A stretch of 23,271 nt of DNA, taken from the IMG/VR virus record IMGVR_UViG_2563366867_000008; one strand, written 5' to 3'. The notes under the pieces are model-generated. The model had not been told where the DNA came from. It did no database searches and saw only the letters and a program-made list of their open reading frames with translations. The position numbers and the translations under genes were made by a program. Positions 3,044-11,777 of this stretch are shown piece after piece. Origin of the DNA: a virus (lineage: Duplodnaviria > Heunggongvirae > Uroviricota > Caudoviricetes). The first letter of the stretch is position 1. Every line of letters begins with the position of its first letter.

Positions 3044-4440
3044 AATAAACGCTCCGTTTTACTGCCCGACATGCGGTTATTGCTGTATCTGCGCGGATTG
3101 CCCGGCGTCATGGGAGTGGAAAGAACCCGGGCACTCTCCTGGTCCACAGGCAGAAAATGTCCGTTATGAAAACGCCGGTAAATGGTCCCGAGTGTGCCAT
3201 TACGCTGTTTCGTGATGTTGATTTCTGCTATGCCTCTGGCCTGTGTATCCGGGTTATACACCTCATCCCTGTAAAGCATCAGAATGATATCGGCATCAGC
3301 CTCTATTTCCCCGGAGTTTTTCAGGTCTGAGTTCATGGGACGTTTATTGGGTCTGGATTCCACGCCTCGGGAGAGCTGGCTCAGAGCAATCAGCGGGAAA
3401 CCGCCGGATTTTGCCAGGCTTTTAAGTCCCTTTGAGATTTCCCCCACAGCAAGGTCGTGACGCCCCGTGCTGCGGGTTTTAATCAGACCGAGGTAATCGA
3501 CCACCACCAGCGCCGTTTCCGGGTGTTTCATCCGGTGGTGCTTCGTGGTTGCACATATCTCATCAATGGTCAGGTTTGCCTGATCCACCATCCAGATATT
3601 ACGCCCCGTCATTCGTCCCACGCCCTGCGAGAAACGCGCCCAGTCTTCATCTTCAAAACGGGCAACAGACTTAAGACGGGATACCGGCATTCCACCGGCA
3701 GCAGACACCATACGTTCACCAATCTGGATGTTCGCCATCTCCATGGTGAACAGAAGCACGCCATGCCCCTGCTCAGTCACCTTGTCGATGATGTCCAGCG
3801 CAAGTTCGGTTTTCCCCATCGAAGGACGGGCGGCAATGAATACCAGGTCTCCGGGCTCCATACCGCCCGTTTTTGCGTCCAGTTCATCAATACCGGTCAT
3901 CAGCGCCCTGGATTTCTCCAGTCCCTGATTGCGGCATTCAACACGGTCGACCACTTCCGGAAGGACATCATCAATGTGAACCGGCTGAATGACGCCCTTT
4001 CCGGTCGACAGTGAGGCCATCATGTTCTGCACATCCTTCAGGGCATCCTCGGCTGCTTCACAGGTATACGCATCACGTAAATTCTGTAATGCTTCAGTCA
4101 GTGTTTTTTCTGCATCGCGCAGTGCGGCATTGCGCCGCAACGCTGCGACATAGTGCTCCAGTGAAGACTTCACCCAGGTTTTGCGTCCGGTGTCGGTAAT
4201 CACCGGGGCAAGTTCCGGCATCTCATTGCACAGCAGTACGGGGTCAATGACGCCGGATATGCTAGCCTGTCTGCAAATCCCCGCGTAAATATCCCGGTAC
4301 TGACGCACAAAAAATACATCCGCCGGAAGTGTGGCCAGAATATCCATCACTTCCGGATCGGCCCCACGCAGAAAAAACGCACCGATGACAGCGCCTTCCA
4401 GGTCATCGTTACGCCATGCCGGGGTGTTCTGGCTGGTCAT
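3040..4440 (-). CDS. Replicative DNA helicase, DnaB family
   Basis: 466 aa; Walker A ARPSMGKTE, Walker B-like region and overall DnaB-like layout; start overlaps upstream stop. Confidence 0.85.
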   Translation of the reverse strand: MTSQNTPAWRNDDLEGAVIGAFFLRGADPEVMDILATLPADVFFVRQYRDIYAGICRQASISGVIDPVLLCNEMPELAPVITDTGRKTWVKSSLEHYVAALRRNAALRDAEKTLTEALQNLRDAYTCEAAEDALKDVQNMMASLSTGKGVIQPVHIDDVLPEVVDRVECRNQGLEKSRALMTGIDELDAKTGGMEPGDLVFIAARPSMGKTELALDIIDKVTEQGHGVLLFTMEMANIQIGERMVSAAGGMPVSRLKSVARFEDEDWARFSQGVGRMTGRNIWMVDQANLTIDEICATTKHHRMKHPETALVVVDYLGLIKTRSTGRHDLAVGEISKGLKSLAKSGGFPLIALSQLSRGVESRPNKRPMNSDLKNSGEIEADADIILMLYRDEVYNPDTQARGIAEINITKQRNGTLGTIYRRFHNGHFLPVDQESARVLSTPMTPGNPRRYSNNRMSGSKTERLF

Positions 4441-7245: not shown

Positions 7246-7631
7246 AGTGACAGCCCCGGTAGTCAGTTTTTTAGAAAACTCACCACATGGGACGCCAATC
7301 ACAGAGGTGGTGAGACGTACAGGGTTGGCGTTACCGGAGACTACCGAACCCGGCCCGACCGAAGTCGGCCCTGTACGCCCCACCATAATTTGGGCGTAGC
7401 AATGCTCATGACACGAAAAAACCGCATGAGCGCGGTTATGCTCAGTAATCAATTTCAGGACGCCAATCCCGGCACCCGCTTTATAAGGTGCGGAGACAGT
7501 GTAACGTCCCGAAATTGCAGAATCAATATTTGGTCTTGAAATGATCATATAGCTGCTGATATCTTTAGAACTGTTCTTGGATGTTTCGGAGCCGTTTTAT
7601 GCGAAACAGCTCCCCGTTATTGATGTTGAGT

Positions 7632-8599: not shown

Positions 8600-8680
8600 A
8601 CACCAGATACTTTGTTATCCAACGATGTTAACCACAGGAACCCAAAGTATCAAGAAATTCTGTTACTTTAGTATCAACAG
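8600..8680. promoter_or_regulatory. Right operator/divergent promoter region (OR-like)
   Basis: AGTATCAA half-sites at 8646-8653 and 8668-8675, inverted GATACTTTG at 8606-8614; lies between the cI-like start and the minus-strand early operon. Confidence 0.6.
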
Positions 8681-8699
8681 CCATGAGAGGAGAAGAAAA

Positions 8700-9356
8700 A
8701 TGAAGTCTTTAGGTGAACGTCTCATCAACGCACGGCAAAAAGCTGGGTTAACACAAGATGCGTTGGCTAAAAAAGCTGGGGTCACCAGAGTTGCAATCAG
8801 TAAAGCCGAGCAAGGCCTTACAAAAAGTTTCAACGGTGACACCCTTTTTAAAGTTGCAGCTGCACTGCAGTGTTCACCGCAGTGGCTTCAGAACGGAGAT
8901 GAAAAAGATAAGCATTGGGAAAATAATGTTAAGAGCTGCCCACAGAGAGACACAGCATACTCTTACCCTGTAATTAACTGGGTTCAGGCAGGATTATTCG
9001 CAACTTCTGGTGATGACTACAACATGTATGATCAGGATAATTGGAGGCATTCTGTAAAATACGCTGGTGAGAGGGGGTTCTGGCTGGAAGTGCACGGAGA
9101 CTCAATGACTTCGCCCGTAGGAATAACATTTCCTGAAGGAATGTCGATCCTTGTCAACCCAGATAAAGAAGTTTTTTCAGGGTGTTACGTCATCGCCAGA
9201 AAAAAATCTACCAATGAAGCAACATTCAAAAAATATATTTCTGAAATGGGAAAGGCGTTTCTAAAGCCCCTTAATCCACAATATCCAATCATAGAAATGG
9301 ACAATGATTGCGAAATAGTAGGTGTTGTGGTTGATGCCAGGTGGGATATTTTCTAA
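8700..9356 (+). CDS. cI-type repressor (N-terminal HTH-XRE, C-terminal S24 LexA-like autopeptidase)
   Basis: Start at internal ATG with RBS GAGAGGAGAAG; HTH LTQDALAKKAGVTRVAISKAE; GDSM serine and downstream Lys typical of S24. Confidence 0.85.
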   Translation: MKSLGERLINARQKAGLTQDALAKKAGVTRVAISKAEQGLTKSFNGDTLFKVAAALQCSPQWLQNGDEKDKHWENNVKSCPQRDTAYSYPVINWVQAGLFATSGDDYNMYDQDNWRHSVKYAGERGFWLEVHGDSMTSPVGITFPEGMSILVNPDKEVFSGCYVIARKKSTNEATFKKYISEMGKAFLKPLNPQYPIIEMDNDCEIVGVVVDARWDIF

Positions 9357-9379: not shown

Positions 9380-9456
9380 ACCAAAGTATCAAAAATCACT
9401 TGCCACACCTTGATACCTTAGTTACCATAAAACAAAGTTCGTAACTGAGGTATCAT
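9380..9456. promoter_or_regulatory. Left operator/promoter region (OL/PL-like)
   Basis: AAAGTATCAA (9382-9392) and inverted TTGATACCTT (9410-9419), GGTATCA at 9449-9455, plus GTTAC...GTAAC inverted repeat; same half-site as the OR region. Confidence 0.6.
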
Positions 9457-9459
9457 CTC

Positions 9460-9876
9460 ATGATCAATAAAGCTACAACTCTTGACTGTCTCGAAGAACT
9501 GAAAAACCTCGGCAGCCTCATTACACTAATAGCAAAAGCAACACCTGATGCTACGCTCTCTAGCGATATAGAGTCATGCGCAGGACTGGCATGGGATATG
9601 ACAAATAGCATATCCAGAAAGCTATCGTCAGCAATGCTTTTACAGAACAAAAATTCTGCAATCAACAACCGTCTTCGCACCCAACGCGAAGCCTGCGGCT
9701 TAACAACCGCCGAACTCGCCAGGCTGCTCGATCTCGATGAAGAAATTATCATCCAGTGGGAGAGCGGAGAGTATGAACCAACTATCAGTATGCTTATCCC
9801 ACTGGCAAATATTCTTGGCTGCGATCCGATGTGGCTGTTAACTGGCGAAACGGCAGCAAAGGATATCTGCGCATGA
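9460..9876 (+). CDS. HTH-XRE DNA-binding protein (C-terminal HTH), first gene of the PL-side operon
   Basis: 138 aa; LTTAELARLLDLDEEIIIQWESGEYEPT HTH; occupies the position of N but has no arginine-rich motif. Confidence 0.7.
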   Translation: MINKATTLDCLEELKNLGSLITLIAKATPDATLSSDIESCAGLAWDMTNSISRKLSSAMLLQNKNSAINNRLRTQREACGLTTAELARLLDLDEEIIIQWESGEYEPTISMLIPLANILGCDPMWLLTGETAAKDICA

Positions 9877-10115
9877 AAAACTGTGATGCTTACCATATTT
9901 GTCTCATTGGTGAATTGCTTGATTTCATACAAAAAAGCACTGCGCGCAATAATAAAAATATAACATATGGTGATCTGGTAATAATTTCAGAGGATATAAA
10001 GAGCATCGCTCTTAAATTCAAGAGCGACGCGAGTATTGATGACGCTATTTACGCTTATCTTGCGAAAATAATTGACGGATCCAAAATCCAGCCTCTGGAT
10101 GAACCTCGTCAGTGA
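9873..10115 (+). CDS. Hypothetical protein coupled to the HTH gene
   Basis: 80 aa from ATG at 9873 (ATGA overlap with upstream stop); AT-rich codon usage; 3' end overlaps a convergent ORF. Confidence 0.4.
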   Translation: MKNCDAYHICLIGELLDFIQKSTARNNKNITYGDLVIISEDIKSIALKFKSDASIDDAIYAYLAKIIDGSKIQPLDEPRQ

Positions 10116-10272
10116 AAAACTCCTTTGATGAAGATGAGAACTGCTTCATAAACTTTACTTTATCTTCAGGTGAAACTACCTGACGAATTAATGCGGAGAT
10201 AGCAACTTTGTGCCAAATTAATTCTTTTTTGAGTTCTGAAATCTCTTTTTCGAGTTGCTCTGCGTTAATCAT
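10045..10272 (-). CDS. Hypothetical coiled-coil protein, own promoter, opposite to PL transcription
   Basis: 75 aa; strong RBS GGAGGA 4-5 nt upstream of ATG. Confidence 0.55.
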   Translation of the reverse strand: MINAEQLEKEISELKKELIWHKVAISALIRQVVSPEDKVKFMKQFSSSSKEFFTDEVHPEAGFWIRQLFSQDKRK

Positions 10273-10451
10273 TTATCCTCCATTGAGAGCTGAATTGAAA
10301 ATGGGGACCAACACGCGGCTACGTGTGGTCGTGCGCCGGACACGGATAAGCATCCGGTAACTGATTATCAATCATTGCGGAAACAGTCTCAATATGAAAA
10401 CACTTCTGAGACTCGCTATATAGCAGGACATATAAGTCAGCTGAGGAAGCC

Positions 10452-10817
10452 ATGAAAAAGTTCGAAAACATAACTGTTCTCCATGTTGATGACTTTGATT
10501 ATACAAACCCGGAACTTCTCCCGGAGGTTGTAAAGGCAATAGATGTTGCCGATATAGTGATTAGAGGAAAGAGAATTGTCAAAAACAGGCTCGCATGCAC
10601 TTCAGAAGCAATGACAGAAACAACCTCACAGCAAGATAATTACGAAGGCATTTGTCTGGAGCCTGATTCATTTGCGGTAAATGTTTATCATTTATTGCAT
10701 GCAACACAGGTATTACATATGTCCAGTAATCACGAAACGAAAACACTCGGCAGCGAAATTCTGAATTTTGCATGTGAGTATGCAAAAACTGCTGCCGAAA
10801 AAGAATTAGCGCAATAA
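10452..10817 (+). CDS. Hypothetical protein
   Basis: 121 aa; RBS GAGGAAG; divergent from the 10045-10272 gene across a palindrome-rich 180-bp spacer. Confidence 0.55.
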   Translation: MKKFENITVLHVDDFDYTNPELLPEVVKAIDVADIVIRGKRIVKNRLACTSEAMTETTSQQDNYEGICLEPDSFAVNVYHLLHATQVLHMSSNHETKTLGSEILNFACEYAKTAAEKELAQ

Positions 10818-10895
10818 CAACAAATATGCTCTGAACGTTTATTGCGGTTTTATCGCCGGGGATTGTTACAATCTTAATCCACAGGAGGATTTATT

Positions 10896-11009
10896 ATGAC
10901 TTTTATAAAGAATATGGCATCACACAAGACCGCCTGTCTTATTGCACAATACGGTGAAAATTACATGCATATTGCCTGCTTATTTCTGCGTAAAGCATAC
11001 GGGAAATAA
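10896..11009 (+). CDS. Small ORF (37 aa) with strong RBS
   Basis: AGGAGG 7 nt upstream of ATG; below the 60-aa cutoff of the ORF track; translated manually. Confidence 0.3.
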   Translation: MTFIKNMASHKTACLIAQYGENYMHIACLFLRKAYGK

Positions 11010-11012
11010 CAA

Positions 11013-11372
11013 ATGACACATGAACCCATTAATACATATCGTCGCCGTATAGCTGTTGCAGCACTCCATCGAATAAAACGTAAAACAGGTGGTGATCTGC
11101 TTATTGTTGACCTTCTGGATGGGAACATTACGACCATAGAAATAACAGAACAGTTTATAAACCAGTTGCTGTTGCGCTTTGAAGATATTACCCGTGGTGA
11201 ATTGGGTCGAGTGGAGGGTGAAACAGAATTCCGAACTGCATACCAGAATGCCATCGGGATTAATCAACATACTGAATACCAGGCTGAAACCGGAAAGTTA
11301 ATTATAGACAACCTTTTACAAGAGGTTATTGATTACGCGAAAGAAAAATATATCAGCGGAGGAATTAACTGA
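11013..11372 (+). CDS. Hypothetical protein
   Basis: 119-aa ORF, first of four tightly packed same-strand ORFs. Confidence 0.5.
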   Translation: MTHEPINTYRRRIAVAALHRIKRKTGGDLLIVDLLDGNITTIEITEQFINQLLLRFEDITRGELGRVEGETEFRTAYQNAIGINQHTEYQAETGKLIIDNLLQEVIDYAKEKYISGGIN

Positions 11373-11587
11373 TGGCTAATTTATCCCCTGTATCTGTTGT
11401 GCACGAAAAAGTGCAGATCGTTATGACAATTGAAAATGGCCAGGTAACAGATGTCTGCAAAGTCCGCGATGGAGAGCTGATTGCCAGCATGGATACATTC
11501 ATATGGCTGGCAGAAAGAGCGGGGTATCAGATAACAGCACCTGCTCAGGAGGAAACCAGTGACATTAACAGCAACGCGAATTCCTGA
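11372..11587 (+). CDS. Hypothetical protein
   Basis: 71 aa; RBS GGAGG; start overlaps upstream stop. Confidence 0.5.
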   Translation: MANLSPVSVVHEKVQIVMTIENGQVTDVCKVRDGELIASMDTFIWLAERAGYQITAPAQEETSDINSNANS

Positions 11588-11777
11588 GTGGGTCCACCAG
11601 CAGGCGTTGCTGGTCCTGCGGCGGTACAGATGCCGACGTATATTCCCGCATCGGATACAGCGCAACGGATATCTCAGTCTGAAGGTTAACCGTCGCTGGC
11701 GGCTGTTATCGAAAGACGACGGCCGGAACTGGGAAATAATGAGTCATGAACGTTATTCGGGAGAAATAAAGAAATGA
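11559..11777 (+). CDS. Hypothetical basic protein (GTG start)
   Basis: 72 aa; AGGAGG 6 nt upstream of GTG. Confidence 0.45.
   Translation: MTLTATRIPEWVHQQALLVLRRYRCRRIFPHRIQRNGYLSLKVNRRWRLLSKDDGRNWEIMSHERYSGEIKK

Follow-up and report, generated by a model that had tools for sequence, protein, structure and literature searches.

An exchangeable 5′ leader heads a probable antisense accessory-gene cassette in the early-left operon of a phiP27-like Escherichia coli prophage

The IMG/VR virus record IMGVR_UViG_2563366867_000008 (Caudoviricetes) is a stretch of 23,271 nucleotides (nt), referred to here as the window, that corresponds to a phiP27-like Escherichia coli prophage. Our subject is a small minus-strand gene within its early-left (PL) operon, encoding a protein of 75 amino acids (aa) that we call Y75, together with a conserved leader of about 86 nt that precedes the gene and the promoter-like and terminator-like elements that bracket both. 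In this region the window shows no difference from strain ZH063 (NZ_CP014522.1, around 1.981 Mb; 100% identity), and its identity to phage phiP27 is 93-94%. The features of the putative cassette, and the open reading frame (ORF) that it meets head-on, are as follows.

10364..10392, minus strand: sigma-70-like promoter of the cassette, with -35 TTGAGA (10392..10387), a 17-bp spacer and -10 GATAAT (10369..10364); consensus scan, 10 of 12 matches
10273..10358, minus strand: conserved 5′ untranslated leader of ~86 nt, from homology boundaries, a covariance model and genome BLAST
10336..10357, minus strand: leader hairpin 1, 5′-terminal, CCGGA/UCCGG stem and 12-nt loop, from minimum-energy folds
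10307..10329, minus strand: leader hairpin 2, 8-bp stem with one bulge, containing CACGCGGCTACGTG, from the minimum-energy fold
10276..10281, minus strand: Shine-Dalgarno sequence GGAGGA of the 75-aa gene, read from the sequence
10272..10045, minus strand: 75-aa ORF (Y75; L09 in the phiP27 annotation; phrog_20080)
10003..10030, minus strand: intrinsic-terminator-like hairpin, a 12-bp stem followed by UCUUUAUAU, 15 nt past the 75-aa stop codon and inside the 80-aa ORF; consensus scan
9873-10115, plus strand: 80-aa ORF (X80, phrog_23054), ATGA-coupled to the upstream gene L10, convergent with the 75-aa gene and overlapping it

The original prediction for this locus had described the 75-aa gene and a 121-aa plus-strand gene (10452-10817) as a divergent pair that shares a palindrome-rich control region, and had read the whole as a self-contained, independently regulated moron of unknown function. 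What was observed is confirmed, and the interpretation holds in part. The 75-aa ORF is present as described, with a strong ribosome-binding site (GGAGGA at 10281..10276, 3 nt 5′ of the ATG), and it shares 71 nt with the 3′ end of the upstream plus-strand ORF, which in fact begins with the ATG at 9873 and encodes 80 aa, not the 94 aa of a form initiated at GTG. The spacer to the 121-aa ORF measures 179 bp (180 bp had been claimed) and contains the inverted repeats CCGGA-N12-TCCGG (10336-10357) and AGTCTCA-N15-TGAGACT (10385-10413) as well as the CACGCGGCTACGTG core (10312-10325). It is indeed rich in palindromes, with 12 exact inverted repeats (arms of at least 5 nt) in 10273-10451 compared to 2.55 ± 2.05 in 1000 shuffles, 0.2% of which reached 12. 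The 7-bp repeat taken alone is not significant; it was found in 11% of shuffles and, with three mismatches allowed, in 56 of 100 window shuffles.

The portion of this spacer adjoining Y75 recurs in many other prophages. When 5426 complete E. coli genomes were searched by BLAST, the whole region was present in 53 of them, and a stretch of ~93 nt (10272-10364), for which no feature is annotated, was matched in 1004 at 80-90% identity. It runs from the initiation codon of Y75 up to the -10 hexamer in the TTGAGA-17-GATAAT site. Leader loci were also collected by two independent scans of IMG/VR, one with a 26-mer in the hairpin region and one with the Shine-Dalgarno region (loci compared here carry three-digit labels, as distinct from the two-digit gene names of phiP27). 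Pairwise homology of the window to every other leader locus is limited to leader nt 1-86, counted from the first C of the CCGGA hairpin (nt 1) to the base before the ATG (nt 86). Because homology ends exactly at the predicted transcription start on one side and at the ATG on the other, the conserved unit is best read as the transcribed 5′ untranslated region (UTR) of a minus-strand mRNA.

On both sides of these limits the sequence is exchanged. Upstream of nt 1 there are at least six unrelated sequence contexts, and in five of six independent ones a TAnnnT hexamer lies at a fixed offset of 6-7 nt 5′ of the CCGGA hairpin (GATAAT, TAAACT, TAAAAT, TAAATT and TAAGCT). The interval between the hairpin and the ATG is likewise constant across loci, at 85-92 nt. 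Downstream of the leader, BLASTP comparison distinguishes at least eight mutually unrelated families of small ORFs, which we term cargo: the 75-aa family of the window, a 69-aa family, a 64-aa family, a 57/59/61-aa family, a 94/100-aa family resembling GhoS/DUF2622, an 80/61-aa zinc ribbon, a second zinc ribbon of 63 aa, and a 96/99-aa family whose status as unrelated rests, for the 96-aa cargo, on the first 68 residues only. For one of the cargo families, the match to the GhoS antitoxin family reaches the Pfam threshold. The cargo proteins are hydrophilic, and none is membrane-protein-like. Since the cargo is variable and the same cargo is found behind different leader subtypes, leader and cargo appear to recombine independently, with the junction at the ATG.

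A covariance model built from the leaders scored the window leader at 103.8 bits, in a single copy. The model finds one copy per locus, and it also recovers remnants of 24 bits in the Qin prophage of K-12 and 37 bits in the Stx2a phage P13374 of O104:H4. Some genomes, including those of O157:H7 and other Shiga toxin-producing E. coli (STEC), have up to four copies. In Rfam there was no match at the leader at the gathering score, the gathering-score hits of the window lying elsewhere, and relaxing the threshold to E <= 1 yielded nothing within 9900-10900. When one genome per species was scanned with a leader 19-mer, there was no match in Enterobacterales and only chance matches in high-GC taxa; from these searches the leader appears to be confined to a subset of E. 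coli-group prophages. The K-12 Qin remnant (L143, ~3600-3640; NC_000913.3, ~1,649,100-1,649,140) retains only the promoter region and hairpin 1; it lies directly downstream of ydfC, about 250 nt upstream of dicF, and transcription in K-12 might still start there on the minus strand, antisense to ydfC. The remnant in P13374 (L125, 3454-3546) is a truncated leader fused to the 3′ part of a cargo of the 96/99-aa type, and by its sequence is a decayed cassette in the early-left region of this outbreak-strain Stx phage family.

The signals bracketing the leader and its gene are those expected of a transcription unit. The TTGAGA-17-GATAAT site is the best promoter-like site of the region in a consensus scan, and it places the predicted minus-strand start at ~10358/10357. 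Past the stop codon of the 75-aa gene, the terminator-like hairpin at 10003..10030 is kept in a diverged copy (L012), while for cargo types other than the 75-aa gene the terminator is often unclear. There is no T-run after this hairpin on the plus strand, and it would therefore not stop transcription from PL. Related phages differ by the presence of the unit: PhiR49_2 joins position 9848 to 10365 and lacks 9849-10364, a block that consists of the 80-aa ORF, the 75-aa gene and the leader. The cassette thus has three features of a moron, namely a promoter-like site of its own (by consensus only), a terminator-like hairpin of its own, and presence or absence among related phages. The earlier description as a self-contained moron of unknown function consequently stands for the minus-strand gene alone, which has a promoter-like site and a terminator-like hairpin of its own, is variably present and has no homologue of known function; the 121-aa gene lies outside the unit.

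The RNA of the leader is predicted to form two hairpins. These account for two of the three palindromes noted at first, CCGGA-N12-TCCGG and the CACGCGGCTACGTG core, which lie within the transcribed leader and are not operators. The stem of hairpin 1 is kept in all 35 distinct leaders, with one change of G-C to G-U, and its loop is variable. In hairpin 2, 96.4% of cells are paired, and compensatory double changes occur at two pairs (A-U to U-A and C-G to U-A) with G-U intermediates. Taken together, 97.8% of cells pair across the 35 distinct leaders, and the observed measures were reached by 4-6 of 500 shuffles. The leader strand folds with z = -2.1 to -2.7 relative to shuffles in three of four variants, compared to z = -0.08 for the plus strand of the window. 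We assign the leader to the minus strand because of the position of the promoter-like hexamer, the junction of Shine-Dalgarno sequence and ATG, and the stability of the fold.

The top of hairpin 2 occurs in two forms, ACACGTGACAGCGTGT and ACACGCTGTCACGTGT, which are exact reverse complements of each other, with the stem preserved (columns 33-48 of alignment A6, for example L003 versus L006/L010/L146); judging from the alignment, the stem-loop is flipped in some leader subtypes with its stem kept.

Several other functions were considered for the leader. The Shine-Dalgarno sequence may be partially occluded by local pairing (CCAUU/AAUGG or CUC/GAG) in the models, with a predicted unpaired probability of 0.35-0.55 that depends little on temperature. 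An RNA thermometer, which would melt at ~30-42 °C, has little support: in the window this probability rises no further than from 0.41 to 0.55, and two other variants show no change. A small RNA (sRNA) ending after hairpin 2 is unlikely because the U-run lies 5 nt from the stem. The known prophage sRNAs of enterohaemorrhagic and enteropathogenic E. coli do not match in location: AgvB and AsxR occupy the PR′ moron site, and the Pas sRNAs come from late or structural regions. A leader-peptide attenuator was also rejected: the window leader does have an open frame that ends beside the ATG (a 32-aa ORF, 10371..10273), but indels of 1 and 2 nt between leader subtypes shift the frame, and there is no conserved upstream ORF.

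The 75-aa gene, which is annotated by the NCBI Prokaryotic Genome Annotation Pipeline (PGAP), bears the mark of purifying selection, with a ratio of nonsynonymous to synonymous polymorphism (pN/pS) of ~0.2 both outside and inside its overlap with X80. X80 was left out by PGAP; its pN/pS is ~0.2 outside the overlap and ~0.8-0.9 inside, where the 75-aa frame is the constrained one, and on this evidence it appears to be a real gene. The two co-occur in 53 of 53 genomes. Y75 is modelled as an all-helical protein with a long N-terminal helix (residues 4-32; predicted local distance difference test, pLDDT, ~86) and a weaker remainder, which agrees with the coiled coil that had been predicted. Searches for relatives, by a word-indexed method and by exhaustive phmmer of 1.84 billion representatives, returned only its own narrow family as a convincing match; this family is known only from prophage-type loci of E. 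coli, plus one Citrobacter record. The only other phmmer match, a 612-aa repeat-plus-kinase protein, arises through a repeated 'I.AL.RQ.VSPE' motif and was judged uninformative. Neither Y75 nor the 121-aa protein gave anything significant in Pfam, NCBIfam, PADLOC, a PDB sequence search or Foldseek, and the PHROG match of Y75 is to the unannotated phrog_20080 only. A low-ranking Foldseek match to the prophage defence protein Rip1 was dismissed (probability ~0.1, different genomic location). No homologue of known function emerged for the 75-aa protein from these searches. We infer that Y75 is a lysogen-expressed accessory gene.

The cassette opposes an operon whose genes and signals follow the order of phiP27 (repressor, L10, L09, L08 and onward to xis and int).

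8625-9356, plus strand: S24/helix-turn-helix (HTH) repressor
9400-9428, plus strand: PL-like promoter, TTGCCA-17-TACCAT; consensus scan, 9 of 12 matches; it would drive the plus-strand operon through the cassette
9460-9876, plus strand: HTH protein, L10 of phiP27
10452-10817, plus strand: 121-aa ORF, L08 of phiP27
10365..11012, plus strand: mosaic module comprising L08 (10452-10817), the 87-bp stretch upstream of it with AGTCTCA-N15-TGAGACT, and a 37-aa ORF (10896-11009)
downstream of L08, plus strand: further small genes, an SPFH lipoprotein, xis and int

Exact copies of an operator-like decamer, AARGTATCAA, at 9383, 9410 and 9447 flank the PL-like promoter, and more copies lie on the cI-cro side (8604-8677). 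From the synteny with phiP27 and the PL-like promoter with its operator-like repeats (9400-9428), it follows that the region is within the early-left operon, as had been proposed. The cassette promoter itself has no AARGTATCAA-type repressor-operator motif within two mismatches, the copies being clustered around PR and PL.

This opposing orientation is not particular to the window. In each of the four types of context in which we found it, the cassette runs antisense to early phage genes: the PL operon of phiP27, the dicBF operon of Qin-type prophages, the PR side of phiSTEC1589, and P13374. In most genomes it is located in Qin-like prophages, between ydfA/ydfB and dicF-dicB and against the dicBF operon, and in phiSTEC1589-Stx1c it lies, again antisense, on the replication/nin side. 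In the Qin-type loci the convergent gene (the 'ydfC slot'; L003, L006, L019, L022, L040, L085 and others) has a conserved N-terminus of ~55 aa that begins MEFKDLP. These plus-strand proteins belong to at least five PHROGs of unknown function and have unrelated C-termini of 0-160 aa, which change together with the cargo block in a pairing that is not strictly one-to-one.

With a probability of roughly 0.7, we read 10003-10392 on the minus strand as an autonomous antisense accessory-gene cassette, a moron within the PL operon that has a portable leader. For this reading, comparison of sequences provides the layout of the unit, the exact limits of the leader, its many cargos and several promoter contexts, and the constant antisense orientation. 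In the mechanism we envisage, a sigma-70-type promoter would start transcription directly at the 5′-terminal hairpin; a leader consisting of hairpin 1, hairpin 2 and a strong Shine-Dalgarno sequence would precede the 75-aa helical protein; and a hairpin terminator would end the transcript before it enters the regulator genes in antisense. The cassette would be expressed in the lysogen while PL is repressed, its promoter having no repressor-operator-like motif, and the 5′-terminal stem-loop with the fixed ribosome-binding context would set mRNA stability and translation for any cargo attached to it. Upon induction, convergent transcription from PL would shut the cassette off through collision and through a perfectly complementary antisense RNA. 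Y75 would most likely act by binding another protein, and could be a prophage exclusion or host-modifying factor or a neutraliser of X80. The region between repressor and N, and an orientation antisense to lytic genes, are typical of accessory loci according to transcriptomics (PMC7067206).

A number of points weigh against this reading. The promoter, start site and terminator of the cassette are consensus predictions, and the promoter-like sites in the region number 7 compared to 4.7 in shuffles, which is little excess. Covariation is thin, given leaders that are 86% identical on average; hairpin 1 is near-invariant and hence offers little evidence either way on pairing, and the strand is undecided by covariation, with five events of G-U (possible on the leader strand only) versus three of A-C (on the opposite strand only). 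In the common subtype L006, hairpin 2 has two mismatches and the leader folds no better than shuffles. A CUCCAUU/AAUGGAG helix that would occlude the Shine-Dalgarno sequence is absent from the minimum-energy folds and lacks covariation. The protein function proposed for Y75 is pure inference. Finally, the copy of this gene in phiP27 itself is frameshifted (L001, 5767-5961; 35 aa and then the shift), and the deposited phiP27 L09 of 59 aa is the out-of-frame remainder; the 75-aa gene is therefore dispensable for phiP27.

A different account, which we regard as unlikely, would make X and Y75 a convergent pair of effector and neutraliser comparable to a colicin and its immunity protein. Here X, driven by PL, would be a harmful early function and the constitutive antisense Y75 its cognate inhibitor, while the leader and the N-terminus of X would act as recombination handles for swapping X C-termini together with Y. 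Indeed, X80 and Y75 occur together in all 53 genomes, overlap at their 3′ ends and are both under purifying selection, but co-occurrence is trivial between genes that physically overlap. The five PHROGs of Qin-type partners sharing a conserved N-terminus, with C-termini that vary with the cargo block, would fit such an exchange, as would the cargo family that reaches the GhoS threshold in Pfam. However, the KHVIALLLEDAKRL-type C-terminus is found with both a 57-aa and a 94-aa cargo, a 61-aa cargo stands beside an X that has no C-terminal domain, and X80 itself is a stand-alone 80-aa ORF without the conserved N-terminus. Pore-forming colicins have their immunity genes on the opposite strand, each under its own constitutive promoter. 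The Qin-type loci resemble these and polymorphic toxin-immunity systems in having a small gene convergent with a larger SOS-inducible gene, its own constitutive promoter, and a partner with a conserved N-terminus and swappable C-termini; they differ in that no toxin or immunity domain was found, with nothing toxin-like in any X, the pairing is not strict and the cargo is not membrane-like. Likewise, the locus does not resemble a type I toxin-antitoxin system, as Y75 and the other cargo are hydrophilic and no conserved sRNA gene adjoins them across contexts.

A broader variant of this idea is also doubtful. It holds that E. coli lambdoid prophages share an exchange system in which the leader and the N-terminus of the Qin-type X frame a hot spot for swapping blocks of 'variable C-terminus + small antisense protein'. 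The small proteins would be lysogen-expressed inhibitors matched to early effectors, and the shared leader would permit cross-silencing through antisense PL transcripts.

We give still less weight to the proposal that the leader is mainly an antisense target or handle, by which PL transcripts of an induced or superinfecting phage would silence resident cassettes across up to four copies per genome. The leader is conserved across phages with differing cargo, some genomes do carry up to four copies, and a cassette that is always antisense to an early operon necessarily meets anti-leader RNA at induction; yet this conservation is equally explicable by a function in cis, the plus-strand RNA of the window is not unusually structured (z = -0.08), and we found neither a separate plus-strand promoter or terminator nor a T-run after the hairpins. 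A precedent exists in P22, where sas RNA controls translation of sieB mRNA (PMC12197685). Like the cassette, the sieB-esc-sas locus of P22 and lambda provides an early-left gene expressed from the prophage, and its control through the mRNA 5′ region by a complementary RNA is the closest precedent for RNA control of such a gene. In contrast, Y75 has no homology to SieB (no match in Pfam, NCBIfam or PADLOC, only the unannotated PHROG), and no plus-strand promoter or terminator brackets 10273-10358, although read-through from PL would still yield antisense RNA. SieB is also far longer than 75 aa.

Least probable is the operator reading of the original prediction, in which the palindromes are protein-binding sites of a control region for two divergent promoters. 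In its favour are the enrichment of inverted repeats in the spacer, the overlap of AGTCTCA-N15-TGAGACT with the -35 hexamer of the cassette promoter and a near-palindrome that Qin-type promoters, too, have between -35 and -10. However, the predicted start lies upstream of two of the three palindromes, which fall inside the unit bounded by start site and ATG, the 7-bp repeat is imperfect in phiP27 and statistically ordinary, no plus-strand promoter was found in the spacer, and the 121-aa gene with its upstream region is found without the cassette. AGTCTCA-N15-TGAGACT is the only repeat left as a possible operator candidate.

Returning to the cassette as an autonomous antisense moron, comparison with known loci sets it apart chiefly by its leader. 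Morons and accessory loci of lambdoid phages, such as HK97 gp15, lambda rexAB, BTP1 bstA and STMMW_20121 of ST64B, are similarly extra genes with their own promoter and terminator, near the immunity region, variably present and antisense to lytic genes. The cassette is unlike them in that the 5′ leader is itself a conserved exchangeable module with at least eight unrelated cargos and several promoter contexts, for which we found no description. Loci of the acr-aca type also join a conserved regulatory element to fast-exchanging, unrelated small ORFs; their conserved part is a promoter and the aca repressor gene, and they are expressed early in infection. In the cassette it is instead a transcribed 5′ UTR that is conserved, no regulator gene is linked to it, and the orientation of the cassette speaks for lysogenic expression. 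In 5′ UTRs of the ompA type, a hairpin within 1-2 nt of the 5′ end protects E. coli mRNA from 5′-end-dependent attack by RNase E. The leader resembles these in its 5′-terminal hairpin, with no sequence relationship, and may have a similar stabilising role.

The 121-aa gene belongs, from its distribution, to a separate mosaic module and is not a regulated divergent partner of the 75-aa gene. PhiR49_2 has the module at 10365-11012 (98% identical) but no cassette, and many E. coli genomes have the module as well; the cassette is found in 53 genomes and the L08 module alone in many more. Because the module occurs without the cassette, the two genes do not form a regulated divergent pair as had been supposed. 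A consensus scan found no plus-strand promoter in the spacer, and the 121-aa gene is therefore probably an ordinary gene of the PL operon that is read from PL. Its full-length homologues, down to 45% identity, keep the N-terminal half, and a GAGGA motif stands before the ATG at 10452, which makes the 121-aa form a likelier product than the 68-aa form annotated by PGAP. In the model, the 121-aa protein has a small alpha/beta domain at its N-terminus, which a disordered linker connects to a helical hairpin predicted with confidence. Over residues 69-115 it shares 45% identity (E = 2e-10) with the N-terminal domain that an L10-like HTH regulator of PhiR49_2 carries (window 10452-10817 compared with L002 3743-4291), which suggests a regulator-domain mimic whose C-terminal hairpin copies the N-terminal domain of L10-type proteins. 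Some prophages of the window type carry that L10-like regulator variant in place of the window L10.

Other elements were observed elsewhere in the prophage. The AARGTATCAA clusters at 8604-8677 and 9383-9456 lie on both sides of the repressor gene and are probably the right and left operators (OR/OL) of this immunity type. At 7303-7491 on the minus strand, adjoining Rha/Ant-type genes, Rfam matches to C4 antisense RNA (82 bits) and isrK (59 bits) point to an RNA-controlled antirepressor module in the style of P1/P7 on the PR side. Positions 362-876, also on the minus strand, hold STnc100 sRNA (134 bits) together with three genes for tRNAs (Arg-TCT, Arg-TCG and Met-CAT); a preprint on the Pas sRNAs ties STnc100 to PasD. 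Further down the PL operon, the plus-strand stretch 11372-11777 may hold a small toxin-antitoxin-like pair: a 72-aa ORF (11559-11777), annotated by PGAP as 'ParE family toxin-like protein', overlaps the end of a 71-aa ORF (phrog_340).

The portable conserved 86-nt leader is new, in that it is absent from Rfam and no description of it was found in the searchable literature: full-text and supplement searches with the leader sequence and protein accessions gave no match, and the paper on the DicF operon does not mention the cassette. For the window, the gene model is corrected from a divergent pair to two independent modules. More generally, ~18% of complete E. coli genomes carry the cassette next to the immunity region or to the dicF-dicB cell-division inhibitors, with cargo genes that are nearly all annotated as 'hypothetical' and a leader that is unannotated. 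The leader, as a covariance model or a 19-26-mer, thus offers a sequence handle for listing small prophage proteins that are probably expressed in the lysogen, and such genes often prove to be exclusion, defence or host-modifying factors. It also poses a question for RNA biology, namely that of an 86-nt UTR that stays near-constant while promoter and ORF are both replaced. If the exchange-system or cross-silencing reading were true, the leader would be of higher interest still.

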